Shown piece by piece: positions 8,063 through 36,270 of a stretch of DNA of 37,227 bases. The DNA comes from a virus. The notes beneath the pieces were generated by a model, which saw only the letters and a program-made list of their open reading frames with translations, did not search any database and was not told where the DNA came from. A program made the translations under genes and the position numbers. Every line of letters begins with the position of its first letter. Within the stretch, counting starts at the first letter, position 1. Location of the stretch: IMG/VR virus record IMGVR_UViG_3300029955_000077; one strand, given 5' to 3'.

Positions 8063-8136
8063 GCCTCCATCGGCAACTGGATAGTCAACATCGCTTCGAA
8101 CGATGATTAGTGTAAGATCGTACCTTACTGGGGGCA
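8063..8136 (+). tRNA. tRNA-Arg (anticodon UCG)
   Basis: Acceptor GCCTCCA/TGGGGGC, anticodon stem CATCG/CGATG with loop CTTCGAA, T-loop ATCGTAC (A at position 54), CCA encoded. Confidence 0.5.
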
Positions 8137-8144
8137 CCAAGTTT

Positions 8145-8372
8145 ATGAAGATTAATTTTCGAGGACAAATGGTCGAAGATAGGTCTGGTATAGACGAAGA
8201 TAAACAGTATCGTTGTACCGATTGTGGGAAGGTGACATTTGGTAAAGATTTATCTTTAGTTTCTTACCAAACTTCAATGGAAGTAAGGGGAGAACTTGTT
8301 CCTACAGGAGAAATGGTAATTAACACTCGTCTGTGTCCCGAAGATAGAGGACATGTAGTAGAAGAGATTTGA
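8145..8372 (+). CDS. zinc-ribbon protein (75 aa)
   Basis: ATG after the tRNA (the track ORF starts inside the tRNA). Motif CTDCGK...CPEDRGH. Confidence 0.45.
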   Translation: MKINFRGQMVEDRSGIDEDKQYRCTDCGKVTFGKDLSLVSYQTSMEVRGELVPTGEMVINTRLCPEDRGHVVEEI

Positions 8373-8376
8373 TTTT

Positions 8377-8460
8377 TGTGGAGTAAACCGTAATTGGCAG
8401 CGGGCTGCACTGTTAATGCAGTGTCGTAAGACTCTGGGGGTTCGAGACCCTCCTCCACAG
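8377..8460 (+). tRNA. type-II (long variable arm) tRNA with anticodon GUU. The body is Tyr-like but the anticodon is that of Asn.
   Basis: 84 nt. Acceptor TGTGGAG/CTCCACA, anticodon stem CTGCA/TGCAG with loop CTGTTAA, 14-nt variable arm with a GTC/GAC mini-stem, T-arm GGGGG-TTCGAGA-CCCTC, CCA encoded. Confidence 0.5.
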
Positions 8461-8469
8461 CCAAATTTT

Positions 8470-8559
8470 AGCGCTCCGGTAGAACAGGTGGGTCTTCAAC
8501 TCCCTTAGCTAGTTCATCGGTAAACACTCTTCGGGGTTGAAGCCGGGAGTAGCAGCGCT
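8470..8559 (+). ncRNA. long imperfect hairpin, possibly a structured RNA element
   Basis: AGCGCT...AGCGCT bracket an inner CTTCAAC(T)CCC / GGGGTTGAAG stem, followed by AAAAATTTTTA. Confidence 0.2.
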
Positions 8560-8681
8560 AAAAATTTTTATTGGGACGTAGGAAAACCGGCAACCCCACT
8601 GGGTTCTGACCCCAGCGACCAATTTGGTCACTGCATGTTCAAATCATGCCGTCCCAGCCAAAAATGATATTTAACGATTAT

Positions 8682-8753
8682 TCCTGCGTAGCTCAGGGGC
8701 AGAGCGAACGGCTGTTAACCGTTTGGTCGGTGGTTCGAATCCATCCGCAGGAG
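8682..8753 (+). tRNA. tRNA-Asn (anticodon GUU)
   Basis: Acceptor TCCTGCG/CGCAGGA, D-arm GCTC-AGGGGCA-GAGC, anticodon stem AACGG/CCGTT with loop CTGTTAA, T-arm GGTGG-TTCGAAT-CCATC, CCA encoded. Confidence 0.75.
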
Positions 8754-8834
8754 CCAAATTTGGGTCAGGAGGTCGGCGGTCTCGTACCCGATCTTCCCGT
8801 ATACTGTACGCCTTCGGGCTACAGGCAGATGACG

Positions 8835-8872
8835 GGTGTAGCTCAGTAGTAGAGCACCTGATCTAATTTACT
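8835..8872 (+). pseudogene. tRNA 5' fragment (acceptor and D-arm only)
   Basis: GGGTGTA-GCTC-AGTAGTA-GAGC resembles the 5' half of the following tRNA-like gene. No matching 3' half follows. Confidence 0.3.
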
Positions 8873-8960
8873 TTGAGCGAGTTACGTGGAAGGCAACTTT
8901 GTTCATGGAGGGCAACGACCAAAGCGACTCGCTCAATAAGTTTTGAAGTTTGAAGTCATG

Positions 8961-9031
8961 ATACACGTAGCTCAATTGGTAGAGCAGCGCCATTAACGGC
9001 GCTGATGTGGGTTCGATCCCCACCGTGAGGA
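8961..9031 (+). tRNA. tRNA-like gene or pseudo-tRNA with an atypical anticodon loop
   Basis: D-arm GCTC-AATTGGTA-GAGC, T-arm GTGGG-TTCGATC-CCCAC. The anticodon stem GCGCC/GGCGC encloses a 6-nt loop ATTAAC. The acceptor pairs weakly (ATACACG/CGTGAGG) and no CCA is encoded. Confidence 0.3.
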
Positions 9032-9111
9032 AGGCTTCTTGGGAGAAGATAGACACTTGATCAGTGGACCGTTTCGTGAAATCCTTCAATCCCACCGGTT
9101 TTAGAAAGTTT

Positions 9112-9184
9112 GCGTTGGTAGCTCAATTGGCGGAGCACTCGACTCTTAATCGATAGGCTGTGGGATCGTTGCCCACCCAGCGCA
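9112..9184 (+). tRNA. tRNA-Lys (anticodon CUU)
   Basis: Acceptor GCGTTGG/CCAGCGC, D-arm GCTC-AATTGGCG-GAGC, anticodon loop CTCTTAA, T-arm GTGGG-ATCGTTG-CCCAC, CCA encoded. Confidence 0.6.
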
Positions 9185-9228
9185 CCAAGATTTAGGAATT
9201 GATTATAAGCCAGTAAGCGTGTATTATT

Positions 9229-9381
9229 ATGATTGACCCAAATCATCTCTACACTTTGCATCAGACATACACAGGAACTGATTGTGCTTTGTGCGGGAAG
9301 CCAGCGACAGAGCATCCATTAGAGTATTGGATGATTAACGGTAAACAACAAGAATTAGTTAGAATTCATATTGGGGAATGA
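9229..9381 (+). CDS. small CxxC protein (50 aa)
   Basis: ATG ORF with CALCG. Its 3' end overlaps tRNA-Phe by 9 nt. Confidence 0.25.
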   Translation: MIDPNHLYTLHQTYTGTDCALCGKPATEHPLEYWMINGKQQELVRIHIGE

Positions 9382-9445
9382 GCTAGTAGGGTTATAGCGT
9401 TCCGCTGAAGACGGAAAGAATCCAGTTCAACTCTGGGATTCCCCA
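9373..9445 (+). tRNA. tRNA-Phe (anticodon GAA)
   Basis: Acceptor GGGGAAT/ATTCCCC, D-arm GCTA-GTAGGGTTA-TAGC, anticodon stem TTCCG/CGGAA with loop CTGAAGA, T-arm TCCAG-TTCAACT-CTGGG, CCA encoded. Confidence 0.7.
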
Positions 9446-9545
9446 CCAAATTTAAAAAGGAGAAGTAAAATGAACTACATGAATTTAAAACAGGAGGTAC
9501 AAAATATGCATACTCATTAAGATACTGCAAAGGAGCGGTAGAACT

Positions 9546-10361
9546 ATGCGCCCAGACATGGCCAAACTCCTCACTGAAGCTGAGAGGTACGGTTCAAAAA
9601 ACCGATCTCAGAAGTGGGGTAAGCGGTTCAAATATAACCCTGATTCGGACTACGATGATCAACCATATCGTGCTTCGATGTCCCGACATCGGCAAGATGA
9701 CTGCGGGAAAAACCTTAGCGATGTACTCAACCCATTAAAGGGTTATCTCCACAAAAGCGTGGGACGCCATTGGGATGATGTCTACAGTGAAATTTGTCAA
9801 AACCTTGATCGTCGTAGTGTAACTGGATTACATGTATTCACTCATCTTTGGCAATTCGTAGCCAAAAATACTGTGATGTGCATTGACGGAAAGGTACGAG
9901 AATGGGCCGGTGGTGGCGGCTATTTGACTGAGCCCTATAATTATTATATCCACCCATATACCGGGATTTTGTGCGACAGTGGGTACAGCGGATGGCGCGA
10001 ATGGCGGCGCAGCAATCGCACCAGGAAAGAAAAGCCCGTCACCGAGATTCGACTTTCGGACATCGGGCGTTACGAGAAGTTCGACGGCATCTGGTACTAC
10101 TGCGAGAACTACGCTATCAAGCACGAGGGCAAGACGCTGATTCGTCCGGGCTATTTCCGGGTCAATGACGCCATCAAGATCGATGGCGAAGTCAACGAGG
10201 AAGGCGAGCCCTTGGTTTTTTACTTAATCAAATGGACTGAGCACATCAGCACGAAACGCCAGCTTAACCGGAAAGAACTGAAAAAAGCAGGATTGAAAAA
10301 TGACCCTCCGAATCCTAAAGCTTTCAGCAGACGGGAACGAAAGGCTTTGGAGAGAAAGTAA
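9546..10361 (+). CDS. hypothetical protein (271 aa) with a compositionally mosaic C-terminal half
   Basis: Long ORF. The segment at roughly 9960-10215 is markedly more GC-rich than the N-terminal half. Confidence 0.6.
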   Translation: MRPDMAKLLTEAERYGSKNRSQKWGKRFKYNPDSDYDDQPYRASMSRHRQDDCGKNLSDVLNPLKGYLHKSVGRHWDDVYSEICQNLDRRSVTGLHVFTHLWQFVAKNTVMCIDGKVREWAGGGGYLTEPYNYYIHPYTGILCDSGYSGWREWRRSNRTRKEKPVTEIRLSDIGRYEKFDGIWYYCENYAIKHEGKTLIRPGYFRVNDAIKIDGEVNEEGEPLVFYLIKWTEHISTKRQLNRKELKKAGLKNDPPNPKAFSRRERKALERK

Positions 10362-10430
10362 GTATTAGGGGGTATGAGCAGAATGCAAAATGTTTTAGGC
10401 TTTTAGACTCCTTAGAAAGGAAGGTAAATT

Positions 10431-10976
10431 ATGGCAGACACTTTAATTCTTGACCAAAACTGGCAACCACAGTCTTTTTGTAACTGGCAGAACGCTGTGA
10501 AATTGATATATGAAGGGCGTGCTCAAGTTATCAAAGAAGACGAGGGTGGGCGCATTTTACGGTCTCCTTCTCTGGAATGGAAGATGCCAAGGGTTATTGT
10601 TGTCAAAAACGCTTGGGTTCGTAGGAAGCGTTTGTCCGTTCCTTTCTCCAGACGCAACATCGCGGTTAGGGATAATAGCGGGTGTCAGTACTGCGGTAGG
10701 GTATTGAAGACTCAGGAATATACTCTTGACCACGTAATGCCTCGTTCTCAAGGTGGTGTATCTTCATGGACCAATTTGGTGCTCGCCTGTGTGCGCTGCA
10801 ACAAGCGTAAGGCCGGTCAGACACCTAAGGAAGCTGGCATGCACTTACTTAAGCAGCCCGTGGAGCCGAAGAAGGACGATCCGAAGTACAACTTCAAGCT
10901 TCACATTAACAAGCTACGGCCAGAATGGAAAGAGTGGGAAACCTGGCTATATTGGAATGTGGAACTAGAAGCGTAG
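10431..10976 (+). CDS. HNH endonuclease (McrA-like)
   Basis: GGAAGG Shine-Dalgarno site. Motif CQYCG...LDHVMPRSQGG...NLVLACVRCNKRK. Confidence 0.8.
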   Translation: MADTLILDQNWQPQSFCNWQNAVKLIYEGRAQVIKEDEGGRILRSPSLEWKMPRVIVVKNAWVRRKRLSVPFSRRNIAVRDNSGCQYCGRVLKTQEYTLDHVMPRSQGGVSSWTNLVLACVRCNKRKAGQTPKEAGMHLLKQPVEPKKDDPKYNFKLHINKLRPEWKEWETWLYWNVELEA

Positions 10977-11074
10977 AAGCTTTGACACGATCCTTTACGT
11001 GTCACATCTGGTCCCGGATGTGCTGACCCAGCTTAAAGGGTAGGGACTACCAATTTATGAACGGAAGTTGAGCC

Positions 11075-11148
11075 ATCCTCGTACCGGCCTCGTTTCCTAA
11101 ACGAGTAACCGTAAAGGAGCAATGTGGGTTCGAGTCCCACCGAGGATA
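11075..11148 (+). tRNA. tRNA-like element with a CCU anticodon-like hairpin and no canonical D-arm
   Basis: 74 nt. Perfect acceptor ATCCTCG/CGAGGAT, T-arm GTGGG-TTCGAGT-CCCAC, CCA encoded. A CTCGT-TTCCTAA-ACGAG hairpin sits where the D-arm should be, followed by an 18-nt extra segment. Confidence 0.3.
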
Positions 11149-11158
11149 CCAGGTTTTT

Positions 11159-11333
11159 ATGTACATCAAATGCAGCATATTCGATGTGGATTTGGATCAT
11201 GTATTTGATGAGCTGCTTTTGCAGTTGACAGAAATAACACTTCCTGATACACTGGAACTTGATGATCGAAAGATAGATAATCAAGAAGATTATAAACTAC
11301 GAGAGTATTTATTGAAGGCTACAAAATAAGCAT
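11159..11333 (+). CDS. possible small acidic protein (58 aa)
   Basis: ATG ORF whose stop lies inside the start of the dispersed repeat. The Shine-Dalgarno site is weak. Confidence 0.2.
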
Positions 11334-11547
11334 TGAAGGTCTTGCGAAAACCAAGCTGGCTAAATCAATGCTGGATGTTGCATTCGGGAAATAAGAATTA
11401 AGAATTCTCGACGCCTTGGGATACATGGAGTCGTTAAACGACTGCGGACAGTGTGTAAGTCTGGCGAAAGCCAGCAGCGCTGGTTGAAACAGTTAAGGGC
11501 GGCGTTAGCCGCCTAGAATCTCCCGCCTTTAGGCGTGGGAGTATCAA
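11314..11547 (+). repeat. dispersed structured repeat, copy 1 (234 bp)
   Basis: About 85-90% identical to 36408-36620, with two small insertions. It contains conserved hairpins GTCG-TTAAA-CGAC and GGCGGC-loop-GCCGCC. Confidence 0.8.
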
Positions 11548-11631
11548 TATGATGGTAATTCTTAACAACACGCTCACCACGCTTCACCTCAGACCTAAAC
11601 GCTAAATTTCCGCGTTCAAAAATCTCTAAAT

Positions 11632-11703
11632 GCCTCTATCGTCCAACTGGAAGGGCACCGGCCTTCTAAGCCGTGGATCCGGGTTCAAGTCCTGGTGGAG
11701 GTA
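11632..11703 (+). tRNA. tRNA-Arg (anticodon UCU)
   Basis: Acceptor GCCTCTA/TGGAGGT, D-arm GTCC-AACTGGAA-GGGC, anticodon loop CTTCTAA, T-arm CCGGG-TTCAAGT-CCTGG, CCA encoded. Confidence 0.65.
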
Positions 11704-11717
11704 CCAAAAATTTTAAT

Positions 11718-11790
11718 GCCCCCGTAGCTCAGTTGGTAGAGCCACCGCCTTTTAAGCGGAGGGTCGCTGGATCGTTCCCGGCCGGGGGTA
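11718..11790 (+). tRNA. tRNA-Lys (anticodon UUU), copy 1
   Basis: Acceptor GCCCCCG/CGGGGGT, D-arm GCTC-AGTTGGTA-GAGC, anticodon loop CTTTTAA, T-arm GCTGG-ATCGTTC-CCGGC, CCA encoded. Confidence 0.65.
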
Positions 11791-11799
11791 CCAAACTTT

Positions 11800-11872
11800 G
11801 GGTGTATCGTCTAATGGCTAAGACCCCGATCTTTTAAATCGGCCGATTTCGGTTCGAGTCCGAATGCACCCA
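11800..11872 (+). tRNA. tRNA-Lys (anticodon UUU), copy 2
   Basis: Acceptor GGGTGTA/TGCACCC, D-arm GTCT-AATGGCTA-AGAC, anticodon stem CCGAT/ATCGG with loop CTTTTAA, T-arm TTCGG-TTCGAGT-CCGAA, CCA encoded. Confidence 0.7.
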
Positions 11873-11961
11873 CCAAATATTCTACTTGACAAATTCCCTT
11901 AAAACCTCTTAAAGTAAAAATAGGTAACCGAAACCTCGTCAGACCAACCGGAGATGTTTTA

Positions 11962-12473: not shown

Positions 12474-13790
12474 ATGATGAAAAAAGAAATGACCCTTTTG
12501 GGTCTAGTCGCCGCTACGTATTTTATGGTAAGCGGAGGCCCGTACGGTCTAGAAGACCTAATTGCTCAAACTGGTTACGGATGGGGAATACTCATTCTTT
12601 GCTTAGTGCCCTTCCTGTGGGCACTGCCAACCGCTATGATGGTTGGTGAACTCGCCTCTGCGATACCGAATCGCGGGGGTTTTTATATTTGGGTGCAACG
12701 TGCCCTTGGAAAATTTTGGGGATTCCAGGAAGCTTGGCTTTCATTAGCGGCTTCCATATTTGATATGGGAATCTACCCGCTACTTTTTATTTCTTACCTG
12801 GGTGTATTGGCTCCAAGTTTCACCGCAGGGTGGCACGGCTCGCTTATAGCAACGGCTCTAATCGCTGTTTGCGTATTGTGGAACCTTCGGGGTGCCAAAG
12901 CTGTAGGAAACGGCTCTGTGGCGTTAGGAGCCCTTATGGTGAGCCCTTTTGTGATTATCACCCTAGCAGCTCTCCGACACGCCCATCTGACCCATGTTAC
13001 GGGTCATCCTCACGCCGTCAGTCTTATGGGCGGTATTATGGTCGCTATGTGGAACTTCATGGGTTGGGATAACGCCAGCACCATAGCCACAGAAGTCAAA
13101 AAACCTCAACGAACCTACCCCATCGCCATGATGGTGACTATGCTGTTGATTGTTGGAAGCTATATTCTCCCCGTAGCAGCGTCTTGGTATCTGGGAGTAC
13201 CCCTGTCTGCCTGGTCAACAGGGAGTTGGGCGACTATTGGTGAAATCATCGCGGGTTCTTGGGTACGAGACGCCATTGTACTGGGTGGAATGATCAGTGC
13301 AGCGGGGATGTTGAACTCCCTCATGATGAGCTATTCTCGTATTCCCCCAGCGCTGGCTGAAGATCATTATCTGCCTCGCATATTCACAAAAATAAATGCA
13401 GTGTCAGTTCCCATGATAGCTTTATTTGCCTTGGCGACAGTTTGGGCAACAGCGTTCGGTTTGAATTTTGACCGTCTGGTGATGCTGGATATTTTACTTT
13501 ATGGAACGAGTCTTATTCTGGAGTTTATCGCTTTAGTGGTATTGCGTTGGAAAGAACCAGATTTGCCTCGACCTTTTCGTGTGCCTGGGGGAAAATTGGG
13601 CGCTATCTTGGTAGGAGTTTGCCCAACGATACTTCTCTTCGCGGCCGGTATTTTTGGGGATCATAACGGACTATTGCTAGGCTTAGGCATGATTCTATCC
13701 GGGGTGGGTGCTTGGTGTGGAATTCATGGATTTCGTGCCGCTAAATATGAAAAAATCGCTCCCACTTTCTCAACTACCACGATCCCCTAA
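12474..13790 (+). CDS. APC-family amino-acid/polyamine permease (about 12 transmembrane segments)
   Basis: Hydrophobic throughout. The GGPYGLE and GELASAIPNRGGFYIWVQRALG motifs are typical of APC transporters. AAAGG Shine-Dalgarno site. Confidence 0.75.
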   Translation: MMKKEMTLLGLVAATYFMVSGGPYGLEDLIAQTGYGWGILILCLVPFLWALPTAMMVGELASAIPNRGGFYIWVQRALGKFWGFQEAWLSLAASIFDMGIYPLLFISYLGVLAPSFTAGWHGSLIATALIAVCVLWNLRGAKAVGNGSVALGALMVSPFVIITLAALRHAHLTHVTGHPHAVSLMGGIMVAMWNFMGWDNASTIATEVKKPQRTYPIAMMVTMLLIVGSYILPVAASWYLGVPLSAWSTGSWATIGEIIAGSWVRDAIVLGGMISAAGMLNSLMMSYSRIPPALAEDHYLPRIFTKINAVSVPMIALFALATVWATAFGLNFDRLVMLDILLYGTSLILEFIALVVLRWKEPDLPRPFRVPGGKLGAILVGVCPTILLFAAGIFGDHNGLLLGLGMILSGVGAWCGIHGFRAAKYEKIAPTFSTTTIP

Positions 13791-36189: not shown

Positions 36190-36270
36190 ATGGGATAGAT
36201 TCGAACCCCCACACCGGTCTAGGGAGCGGATTAACAGTCCGCAGCTCTCACCAATGAGCAGCCGTCACCA
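36190..36270 (-). pseudogene. minus-strand tRNA-like fragment (D-arm plus GUU anticodon arm)
   Basis: The reverse complement reads GCTC-ATTGGTGA-GAGC followed by GCGGA-CTGTTAA-TCCGC. The T-arm (GGGGG-TTCGAATC-TATCCC) does not pair and there is no matching acceptor 3' strand. Confidence 0.25.

Follow-up and report, generated by a model that had tools for sequence, protein, structure and literature searches.

The stretch of viral DNA analysed here (IMG/VR record IMGVR_UViG_3300029955_000077, 37,227 nucleotides, called the window) carries at positions 8377 to 8463 a transfer RNA (tRNA) gene, AsnII, in which a long variable arm is combined with the Asn anticodon GUU. By the textbook, the class-II tRNAs of bacteria, which have such arms, are those for Leu, Ser, Tyr and Sec only. 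Sequence comparison suggested that AsnII is probably a functional Asn-accepting tRNA derived from tRNA-Tyr. By this comparison, a duplicate of the widespread phage tRNA-Tyr(GUA) was remoulded exactly at the identity positions (U36, G73 and U1-A72), with the Tyr-type D arm, the 4-nt connector, the T arm and the short variable arm retained. The class-II architecture of AsnII could thus be attributed to descent from a phage tRNA-Tyr gene.

ARAGORN called a tRNA-Asn(gtt) at 8377-8463. The Rfam tRNA model RF00005 matched 8380-8457 with 31.8 bits, above the gathering score of 29, and the E-value was 0.006 when Infernal searched the whole window and 1.2e-4 in a local search. The low score can be attributed to the 4-nt UAAA connector, which made Infernal mis-register the acceptor stem. 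An initial annotation had described a tRNA with a perfect acceptor, an encoded CCA, a 14-nt variable arm and a CTGTTAA anticodon loop, and ARAGORN, Infernal and the sequence bore this out. It had also considered that the element might fail tRNA models, which the score above threshold and the ARAGORN call contradict, or that a covariance-model fold might shift the anticodon. A non-GUU anticodon after such an alignment was ruled out, as Infernal and ARAGORN alike placed GUU at positions 34-36. The parts of the gene are as follows.

8377-8463, plus strand: AsnII, long-armed tRNA-Asn(GUU), 84 nt plus encoded CCA (ARAGORN, Rfam, covariation).
8377-8383 with 8453-8459, plus strand: acceptor stem UGUGGAG/CUCCACA, 7 of 7 pairs Watson-Crick, with U1-A72 (U8377-A8459) and G2-C71 (sequence).
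8384-8387, plus strand: connector UAAA between acceptor and D stem, 4 nt against the canonical 2 nt (minimum-free-energy fold).
8388-8403, plus strand: D arm, stem CCGU/GCGG, loop AAUUGGCA, register backed by covariation.
8405-8421, plus strand: anticodon arm CUGCA-CUGUUAA-UGCAG, loop at 8410-8416, GUU at 8412-8414, A37 at 8415 (ARAGORN and Infernal).
8422-8435, plus strand: variable arm U-GUC-GUAA-GAC-UCU, 14 nt, with a 3-bp stem, a GNRA (GUAA) loop and three unpaired 3' nt.
8436-8452, plus strand: T arm GGGGG-UUCGAGA-CCCUC, its stems identical to those of the Streptomyces-phage tRNA-Tyr T arm and its loop nearly so.
8460 and 8461-8463, plus strand: discriminator G73 and encoded CCA (sequence).

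The D loop AAUUGGCA has 8 nt with no extra base at 20a, and G26 lies between the D arm and the anticodon arm. Within the Tyr/Asn family the D stem varied as CGGU/GCCG, CCGU/GCGG, ACGU/GCGU and CAGU/GCUG. This covariation favoured the shifted 4-bp stem, and a 3-bp D stem in the standard class-II register was ruled out. The variable region, with 14 nt and two of three pairs covarying, is of the class-II kind (at least 10 nt forming a stem-loop) and departs from the 4-5-nt variable loop of class-I tRNA-Asn. An allo-tRNA or Sec-like fold, with 8/4 or 9/3 acceptor and T helices, was forbidden by the sequence; AsnII is 7/5.

The body of AsnII proved to be Tyr-like, as the initial annotation had proposed. 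Its best blastn matches among 50,697 phage genomes were annotated tRNA-Tyr(GTA) genes of Streptomyces phages (BillNye, Forrest, Ankus) and of a crAss-like phage (Kolpuevirus); the matches spanned 82-91% of its length at 74-80% identity, with a best E of 2e-7. The alignment showed that the connector, D arm, variable arm and T arm are common to AsnII and these genes. Both have the 'UAAN' connector, the D stem CCGU/GCGG and a variable arm of 13-14 nt with a 3-bp stem and 2-3 unpaired nt; the D loop AAUUGGYA and the T arm GGGGG-UUCRAGU-CCCUC of the phage tRNA-Tyr were counted as the same body. In a comparison with 1062 unique phage tRNAs from 161 sources, the nearest non-orthologous neighbours were again tRNA-Tyr, at up to 79% identity, whereas class-I tRNA-Asn reached at most 65%. 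The phage tRNA-Tyr family is itself widespread (loci L016-L019 and L032-L151), and its 4-nt connector and its 4-bp D stem ending in U.G are backed by covariation.

The Tyr-type D arm combined with the Tyr anticodon loop pattern occurred at no fewer than 120 IMG/VR loci. Combined with the Asn loop pattern it occurred at eight, six of them with a true long-armed Asn tRNA (L024, L025, L026, L029, L030 and L031, on contigs of 105-463 kb; L026 duplicates L025). A scan of GTDB genomes for the latter pattern gave 19 matches, against about 17 estimated from the pattern length and the collection size. Just two were real (L158 and L167), both on contigs of metagenome-assembled genomes with clustered tRNA genes. 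The Tyr-bodied Asn form therefore seems to be essentially specific to phages or to tRNA arrays.

Three identity positions of tRNA-Tyr differ in AsnII: A36 to U, A73 to G, and G1-C72 to U1-A72. The initial annotation had counted a single-nucleotide difference, but the three positions changed together, and every Tyr determinant outside G34 and U35 is replaced. In the family that shares the D-arm motif, A73 was found in 63 of 65 unique Tyr(GUA) genes and G73 in none, while all seven Asn(GUU) genes have G73, one of them masked by an 8-bp ARAGORN parse. Taken conservatively as 6/7 against 0/65, the difference gave a Fisher p of 4.5e-8. U1-A72 was present in 7/7 Tyr-bodied long-armed Asn tRNAs, and G1-C72 in 52/65 Tyr genes. 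The same discriminators recurred in the wider sets: G73 in 15 of 16 long Asn tRNAs by ARAGORN (16 of 16 once the mis-parse was corrected) and in 45 of 48 phage class-I Asn tRNAs, and A73 in 76 of 78 long Tyr tRNAs. Other long-armed isotypes also had the cognate base (Gln G73 6/6, Trp G73 7/8, Lys A73 9/9, Met A73 9/9), and long-armed tRNAs thus appear generally to keep the discriminator that fits the amino acid of their anticodon.

These positions carry known meaning. Asn identity consists of the anticodon and G73 and has been transplanted into tRNA-Lys; Tyr identity consists of A73, U35 and, in Bacteria, G1-C72; G73 is an antideterminant for the synthetases TyrRS and LeuRS; and the amidotransferase GatCAB needs U1-A72 and rejects U20a (PMC9976931). 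In bacterial tRNA-Ser, G1-C72 and G2-C71 are conserved, and the size and orientation of the arm matter (PMC9976931). AsnII has the full set expected of tRNA-Asn: the CUGUUAA loop with GUU, G73, U1-A72 and no base at 20a. With class-I tRNA-Asn(GUU) it shares the loop, G73 and U1-A72, which are used by AsnRS, non-discriminating AspRS and GatCAB, and it differs in the structured arm, in the Tyr-type D arm and connector and in overall identity. Body homology is what links it to tRNA-Tyr; the GUA anticodon, A73 and G1-C72 are all absent. Compared with tRNA-Ser, G2-C71 is present but G1-C72 is not, and the arm geometry is different. Phage tRNA-Ser arms in the same data have 4-8 bp, with one unpaired nt in 39 of 53, whereas AsnII has 3 bp and three unpaired nt.

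The conservation of AsnII indicated that it is selected as a cloverleaf. Across eight orthologues, 96.3% of the alignment cells were paired and 15 of 24 pairs showed two-sided compensatory changes, while none of 500 shuffles was as good and slid controls reached 39-51% paired. Compensated pairs occurred in the acceptor stem (6/7), the anticodon stem (4/5) and the variable arm (2/3). The anticodon loop C32-U33-GUU-A37-A38 was invariant in all seven Tyr-bodied orthologues. Seven diverged orthologues, on viral contigs of 105-463 kb, retained GUU, G73 and U1-A72 while their stems varied by compensatory substitution.

From this identity set, AsnII would be charged by the host AsnRS, or by a non-discriminating AspRS followed by GatCAB. 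We infer this because the Asn identity of anticodon and G73 is portable, and because the U1-A72 pair that GatCAB requires is present. The tRNA would then read AAY codons as asparagine, and its use on the ribosome would be that of any class-II tRNA.

AsnII lies in a tRNA array (7017-11875) in which ARAGORN found abundant genes for Arg, Lys, Asn, Gln, His and Trp. The neighbours that bear on its interpretation are listed here.

8572-8660, plus strand: GlnII, long-armed tRNA-Gln(CUG), 86 nt plus CCA, anticodon at 8606-8608 (ARAGORN; Rfam 42.4 bits).
8682-8756, plus strand: class-I tRNA-Asn(GUU), 72 nt plus CCA (Rfam 65.7 bits).
36194-36259, minus strand: tRNA-Asn-like remnant with a D arm, the anticodon arm GCGGA-CUGUUAA-UCCGC, a variable region of about 15 nt, a mismatched T stem and no acceptor stem.

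The normal 72-nt tRNA-Asn(GUU) that had been placed 220 bp downstream of AsnII is thus real. GlnII, between the two Asn tRNAs, had been overlooked. Its variable arm is C-GACCA-AUU-UGGUC-ACU. Its acceptor end has U1-A72, G2-C71, G3-C70 and G73, which we take to be the acceptor signature of E. coli tRNA-Gln. Six orthologues gave 92.6% paired cells and 16 of 25 pairs with compensatory changes. The D stem of GlnII is unusually weak and conserved as such, with just G10-C25 and G11-C24 paired in five of six orthologues (L025 is the exception). No class-II ancestor of GlnII was detectable, and blastn of GlnII against the phage genomes gave no informative match. A third GUU arm reported on the minus strand does exist, but as a degenerate remnant without an acceptor. 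It scored 24.4 bits, under the gathering score, covered model positions 10-63 only and received no ARAGORN call.

The window seems to be a section of a large phage genome. Almost all of its open reading frames are on the plus strand, and among the recognisable genes are an HNH endonuclease, endonuclease VII, a DNA methyltransferase, an SNF2 helicase, Ku, a phosphoesterase, the RNA-repair-pathway nucleotidyltransferase RlaP and an ADP-ribosylglycohydrolase. An 826-aa protein with major-vault-protein shoulder and repeat domains (1684-4164) and a full-length amino-acid permease (12474-13790) were also observed. Near-identical contigs of up to 133 kb, with the same 15 ARAGORN tRNA calls, were present in many ENA and JGI metagenomes. 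Megablast of the tRNA array against INPHARED gave no match and no close relative, and an exact 25-mer of AsnII had no match in IMG/VR.

Relatives were traced through homologues of a 271-aa open reading frame within the array (9546-10361). L008 (protein 75% identical) shares the long Asn and long Gln tRNAs of the window and adds a long Lys(CUU). L009 (53%) has long Gln, Met and Trp tRNAs, and L010 (47%) combines long Gln and Arg(ACG) tRNAs with a long Asn of different construction. Long Val and Thr tRNAs occur in L014, a T4-like relative. These contents imply that long-armed tRNAs for amino acids other than Leu, Ser and Tyr are a trait of the phage group and not a one-off. A search for related loci with the 271-aa protein gave one weak locus without tRNAs (L001), and the same search with RlaP gave none. 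The loci L012, L013 and L015 (from P0016, P0026 and P0036) contained no long-armed class-I tRNAs.

These relatives also showed features of their own. The more distant L012 (7689-7763) and L013 (12834-12904 and 12986-13060) carry tRNAs with the amber-reading anticodon CUA, labelled 'Pyl' by ARAGORN, which may be suppressor tRNAs. At L009 (5449-5922), a gene for a 157-aa HisRS-like fragment (tRNA-synt_His) adjoins tRNA-His.

Long arms on class-I isotypes extended well beyond these relatives. Among 118 phage loci picked for their tRNA-Tyr alone, independently of Asn, 33 had at least one long-armed tRNA for an amino acid other than Leu, Ser or Tyr. The long-armed share was 7/47 for Asn, 6/29 for Trp, 8/62 for Met, 5/64 for Arg and 4/55 for Lys. 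A 642-kb uncultured phage has three long Lys genes. Cultured phages have them as well: Erwinia phage Hena1 (Asn, 86 nt; Trp, 87 nt), Brevundimonas phage Kikimora (Asn, 84 nt) and Caulobacter phage CcrColossus (Trp, 86 nt), all with plain annotation and no remark on the arm. In the literature searched we found no paper describing long-armed tRNAs of class-I isotype in phages.

The cultured-phage tRNAs resemble AsnII in the arm (3-4 bp, a GNRA loop and a tail of 2-3 nt) and in the cognate discriminator. In contrast to AsnII, none has the Tyr-type D arm, and their origin is independent. The tRNA-Asn of Hena1 has a host-like body with G1-C72. Its D and anticodon arms match those of E. coli tRNA-Asn at 91.7% identity, up to an inserted hairpin, GAGC-GAAA-GCUC, where the resemblance breaks off. 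The long-armed Asn architecture has therefore been reached by hairpin insertion as well as by remoulding of tRNA-Tyr.

Further long-armed tRNA-Asn(GUU) genes were noted at L133 (2700-2785, minus strand), L145 (3750-3837) and L088 (19-105, minus strand). Those of L133 and L145 have Ser/Leu-like D arms of the GCCGAGUGGUCGAAGGC type, G73 and longer variable arms, and on these features they are better candidates for mischarging with Ser than AsnII.

Other explanations of AsnII were weighed. Charged with Asn or Asp, it might serve outside the ribosome: a phage enzyme could use it as aminoacyl donor or as scaffold, or it could act as a decoy or sponge that draws off a host nuclease directed at tRNA. 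The arm would then be the handle that sets it apart from the tRNAs used in translation. Such a role has a precedent in Mom of phage Mu, which uses Gly-tRNA-Gly outside translation (PMC13219725), and it would suit the company that AsnII keeps. A class-I Asn gene was present in every fetched stretch that held a Tyr-bodied AsnII plus more than one tRNA, that is, in six non-redundant arrays. We consider the role unlikely, since the anticodon loop is invariant in the Tyr-bodied orthologues, the T loop and stem lengths suit ribosomal use, and a candidate partner enzyme was not identified within the window. Moreover, elsewhere the long-armed form is the sole tRNA of its anticodon in the fetched array stretch, as with the Asn tRNAs of Hena1 and Kikimora, GlnII and long-armed Trp forms. 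Where it stands alone in this way, it must act as that tRNA if the phage is to benefit.

An equally doubtful alternative, if not slightly more so, is that the class-II body dominates and that AsnII is a missense tRNA, charged by TyrRS or SerRS and inserting Tyr or Ser at AAY. The initial annotation had suggested either a tRNA that causes missense or recoding or a tRNA-Tyr whose anticodon had mutated, and the Tyr-like body and variable arm, together with the G34 and U35 that TyrRS would meet, are what such a tRNA would have. The route through TyrRS would nevertheless be blocked by G73, U36 and U1-A72: G73 is the antideterminant, and A73 and G1-C72 are both lost in 7/7 orthologues. SerRS ignores the anticodon (PMC7609411), and G73 and a long arm are Ser determinants (PMC9976931); a few other phage long-armed Asn tRNAs (those of L133 and L145) do have Ser/Leu-like D arms. 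AsnII would still be a poor SerRS substrate, given U1-A72 in place of G1-C72 and a 3-bp arm with three unpaired 3' nt, outside the phage Ser range. The discriminator also moved to the value that matches the anticodon, a change that a body-dominated missense tRNA would not need, and ambiguous decoding beside a normal tRNA-Asn would harm every phage protein. Neither the missense proposal nor that of a mutated tRNA-Tyr was supported; the identity set of AsnII is that of Asn, and its conservation shows the switch to be old.

It is very improbable that AsnII is neutral or decaying, a duplicated tRNA-Tyr whose anticodon mutated recently and that is non-functional or being lost. The low Rfam score, the odd connector and the degenerate tRNA-like pieces at 8834-8870, 8961-9031 and 36194-36259 fit this reading, but the connector characterises a whole family, with no fewer than 120 phage tRNA-Tyr loci, the compensatory conservation spans phages whose neighbour protein is 47-75% identical, and the gene is conserved across unrelated viral contigs of 105-463 kb with the three coordinated identity changes fixed in all copies.

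Several points weigh against reading AsnII as a working tRNA-Asn whose arm has a purpose. The variable arm faces class-II synthetases such as AsnRS, and it is assumed that they tolerate it. G73 and the long arm also lie within the bacterial Ser identity set, and the 4-nt connector between acceptor and D stem is non-canonical. The arm could be inherited baggage in the lineage of the window, and pairing with a normal tRNA-Asn is also expected of a specialist tRNA outside translation.

What the arm does is less certain than the identity of AsnII. It is possible, though short of probable, that the extra arm alters the shape of the tRNA and thereby lets it escape host defence nucleases or toxins that target tRNAs. 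The arm would then have been retained for its effect on shape, or gained independently elsewhere through a hairpin inserted into a host-like tRNA-Asn, and AsnII and the class-I tRNA-Asn 220 bp downstream would form a pair by which the phage hedges its bets. The genes for RlaP and a PNKP-like protein adjoin the tRNA array. The convergent gain of the arm, the class-I twin and the flanking genes of RNA-repair type point to a conflict between phage and host over tRNA. Resistance of phage tRNAs to the tRNA nucleases of the host has been documented (PMC11464382, PMC10264068). The main alternative is a neutral arm, left over from ancestry.

A broader proposal, which we advance tentatively and regard as rather doubtful, is that large phages keep a parallel class-II-shaped repertoire for class-I amino acids (Asn, Gln, Trp, Lys, Arg, Met and others) in which the arm is functional. 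It would have arisen by at least two routes, remoulding of tRNA-Tyr and insertion of a hairpin into the variable loop. The arm might hide these tRNAs from host immune effectors that cleave or modify tRNA; another option is that it serves as a mark of 'self' for a phage tRNase, repair enzyme or enzyme using aminoacyl-tRNA.

Known systems share parts of this pattern. The nev-tRNAs of nematodes join a long arm to an anticodon other than those of Leu, Ser or Tyr (PMC3333845), and bacterial allo-tRNAs join a class-II or Sec-like body and a long arm to a non-cognate anticodon (PMC5389517). Both differ from AsnII in that the body identity (Leu or Ser) is kept, and both are candidate missense or suppressor tRNAs. 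The helices of allo-tRNAs are 8/4 or 9/3, whereas AsnII is 7/5 with its discriminator switched to match the anticodon. The T5 tRNA-Lys that acts against PARIS and the tRNAs of mycobacteriophages are, like AsnII, structurally different isoacceptors that duplicate those of the host and lie in tRNA arrays. In the known nuclease-resistant phage tRNAs it is the anticodon stem-loop that carries point changes, and escape by means of an added arm is unreported.

The array around AsnII contains other unusual elements. The 108-nt spacer between AsnII and GlnII (8464-8571) forms a long hairpin closed by AGCGCU...AGCGCU (z=-2.7; 0 of 200 shuffles folded as well), with a possible role in processing or as a small RNA; the spacer between the long-armed tRNAs of L008 is also 108 nt. 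At 8834-8937, a look-alike of a tRNA 5' half, GGGUGUA-GCUC...GAGC-A-CCUGA, has no matching 3' half. The hairpin that follows it has as its arms the perfect 10-bp inverted repeat TTGAGCGAGT...ACTCGCTCAA, and the region is a mosaic among the window, L008 and L031. A tRNA-like element at 8961-9031 (Rfam 44.5 bits) has a 6-nt anticodon loop, AUUAAC, an imperfect acceptor and no CCA. It is conserved at the matching array position in L008 (1443-1513, loop AUUUAC), and a related element is found in L031.

A further Rfam tRNA match at 11075-11148 (36.6 bits, no ARAGORN call) has a CCU (Arg) loop, a long variable region and no recognisable D arm. Its L008 counterpart is a normal tRNA-Arg(CCU), likewise between the HNH gene and tRNA-Arg(UCU). 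With this odd CCU element, all six Arg anticodons occur in the array (7655-8139, 11075-11148 and 11632-11706), the others being CCG, GCG, ACG, UCG and UCU; GCG and ACG together are unusual for bacterial systems. The tRNA-Trp(CCA) at 7017-7092 has a 3-nt connector between acceptor and D stem and ends in GCC instead of GCCA. Non-standard connectors are thus recurrent in the array.

Taken together, AsnII appears to be a clean natural case of a complete identity switch, from Tyr to Asn by three coordinated changes with the class-II shape kept. Long-armed tRNAs of class-I identity are frequent in the arrays of large phages, including cultivable phage-host systems. The finding raises the questions of whether AsnRS, GlnRS, TrpRS and GatCAB tolerate an extra arm, whether the arm protects against nucleases that cut the anticodon or variable loop in the conflict between phage and host, and whether such tRNAs could provide orthogonal scaffolds for genetic-code engineering. 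If large phages do keep a parallel class-II-shaped repertoire, the arm would be a new structural principle of counter-defence, and these tRNAs would be naturally orthogonal scaffolds.

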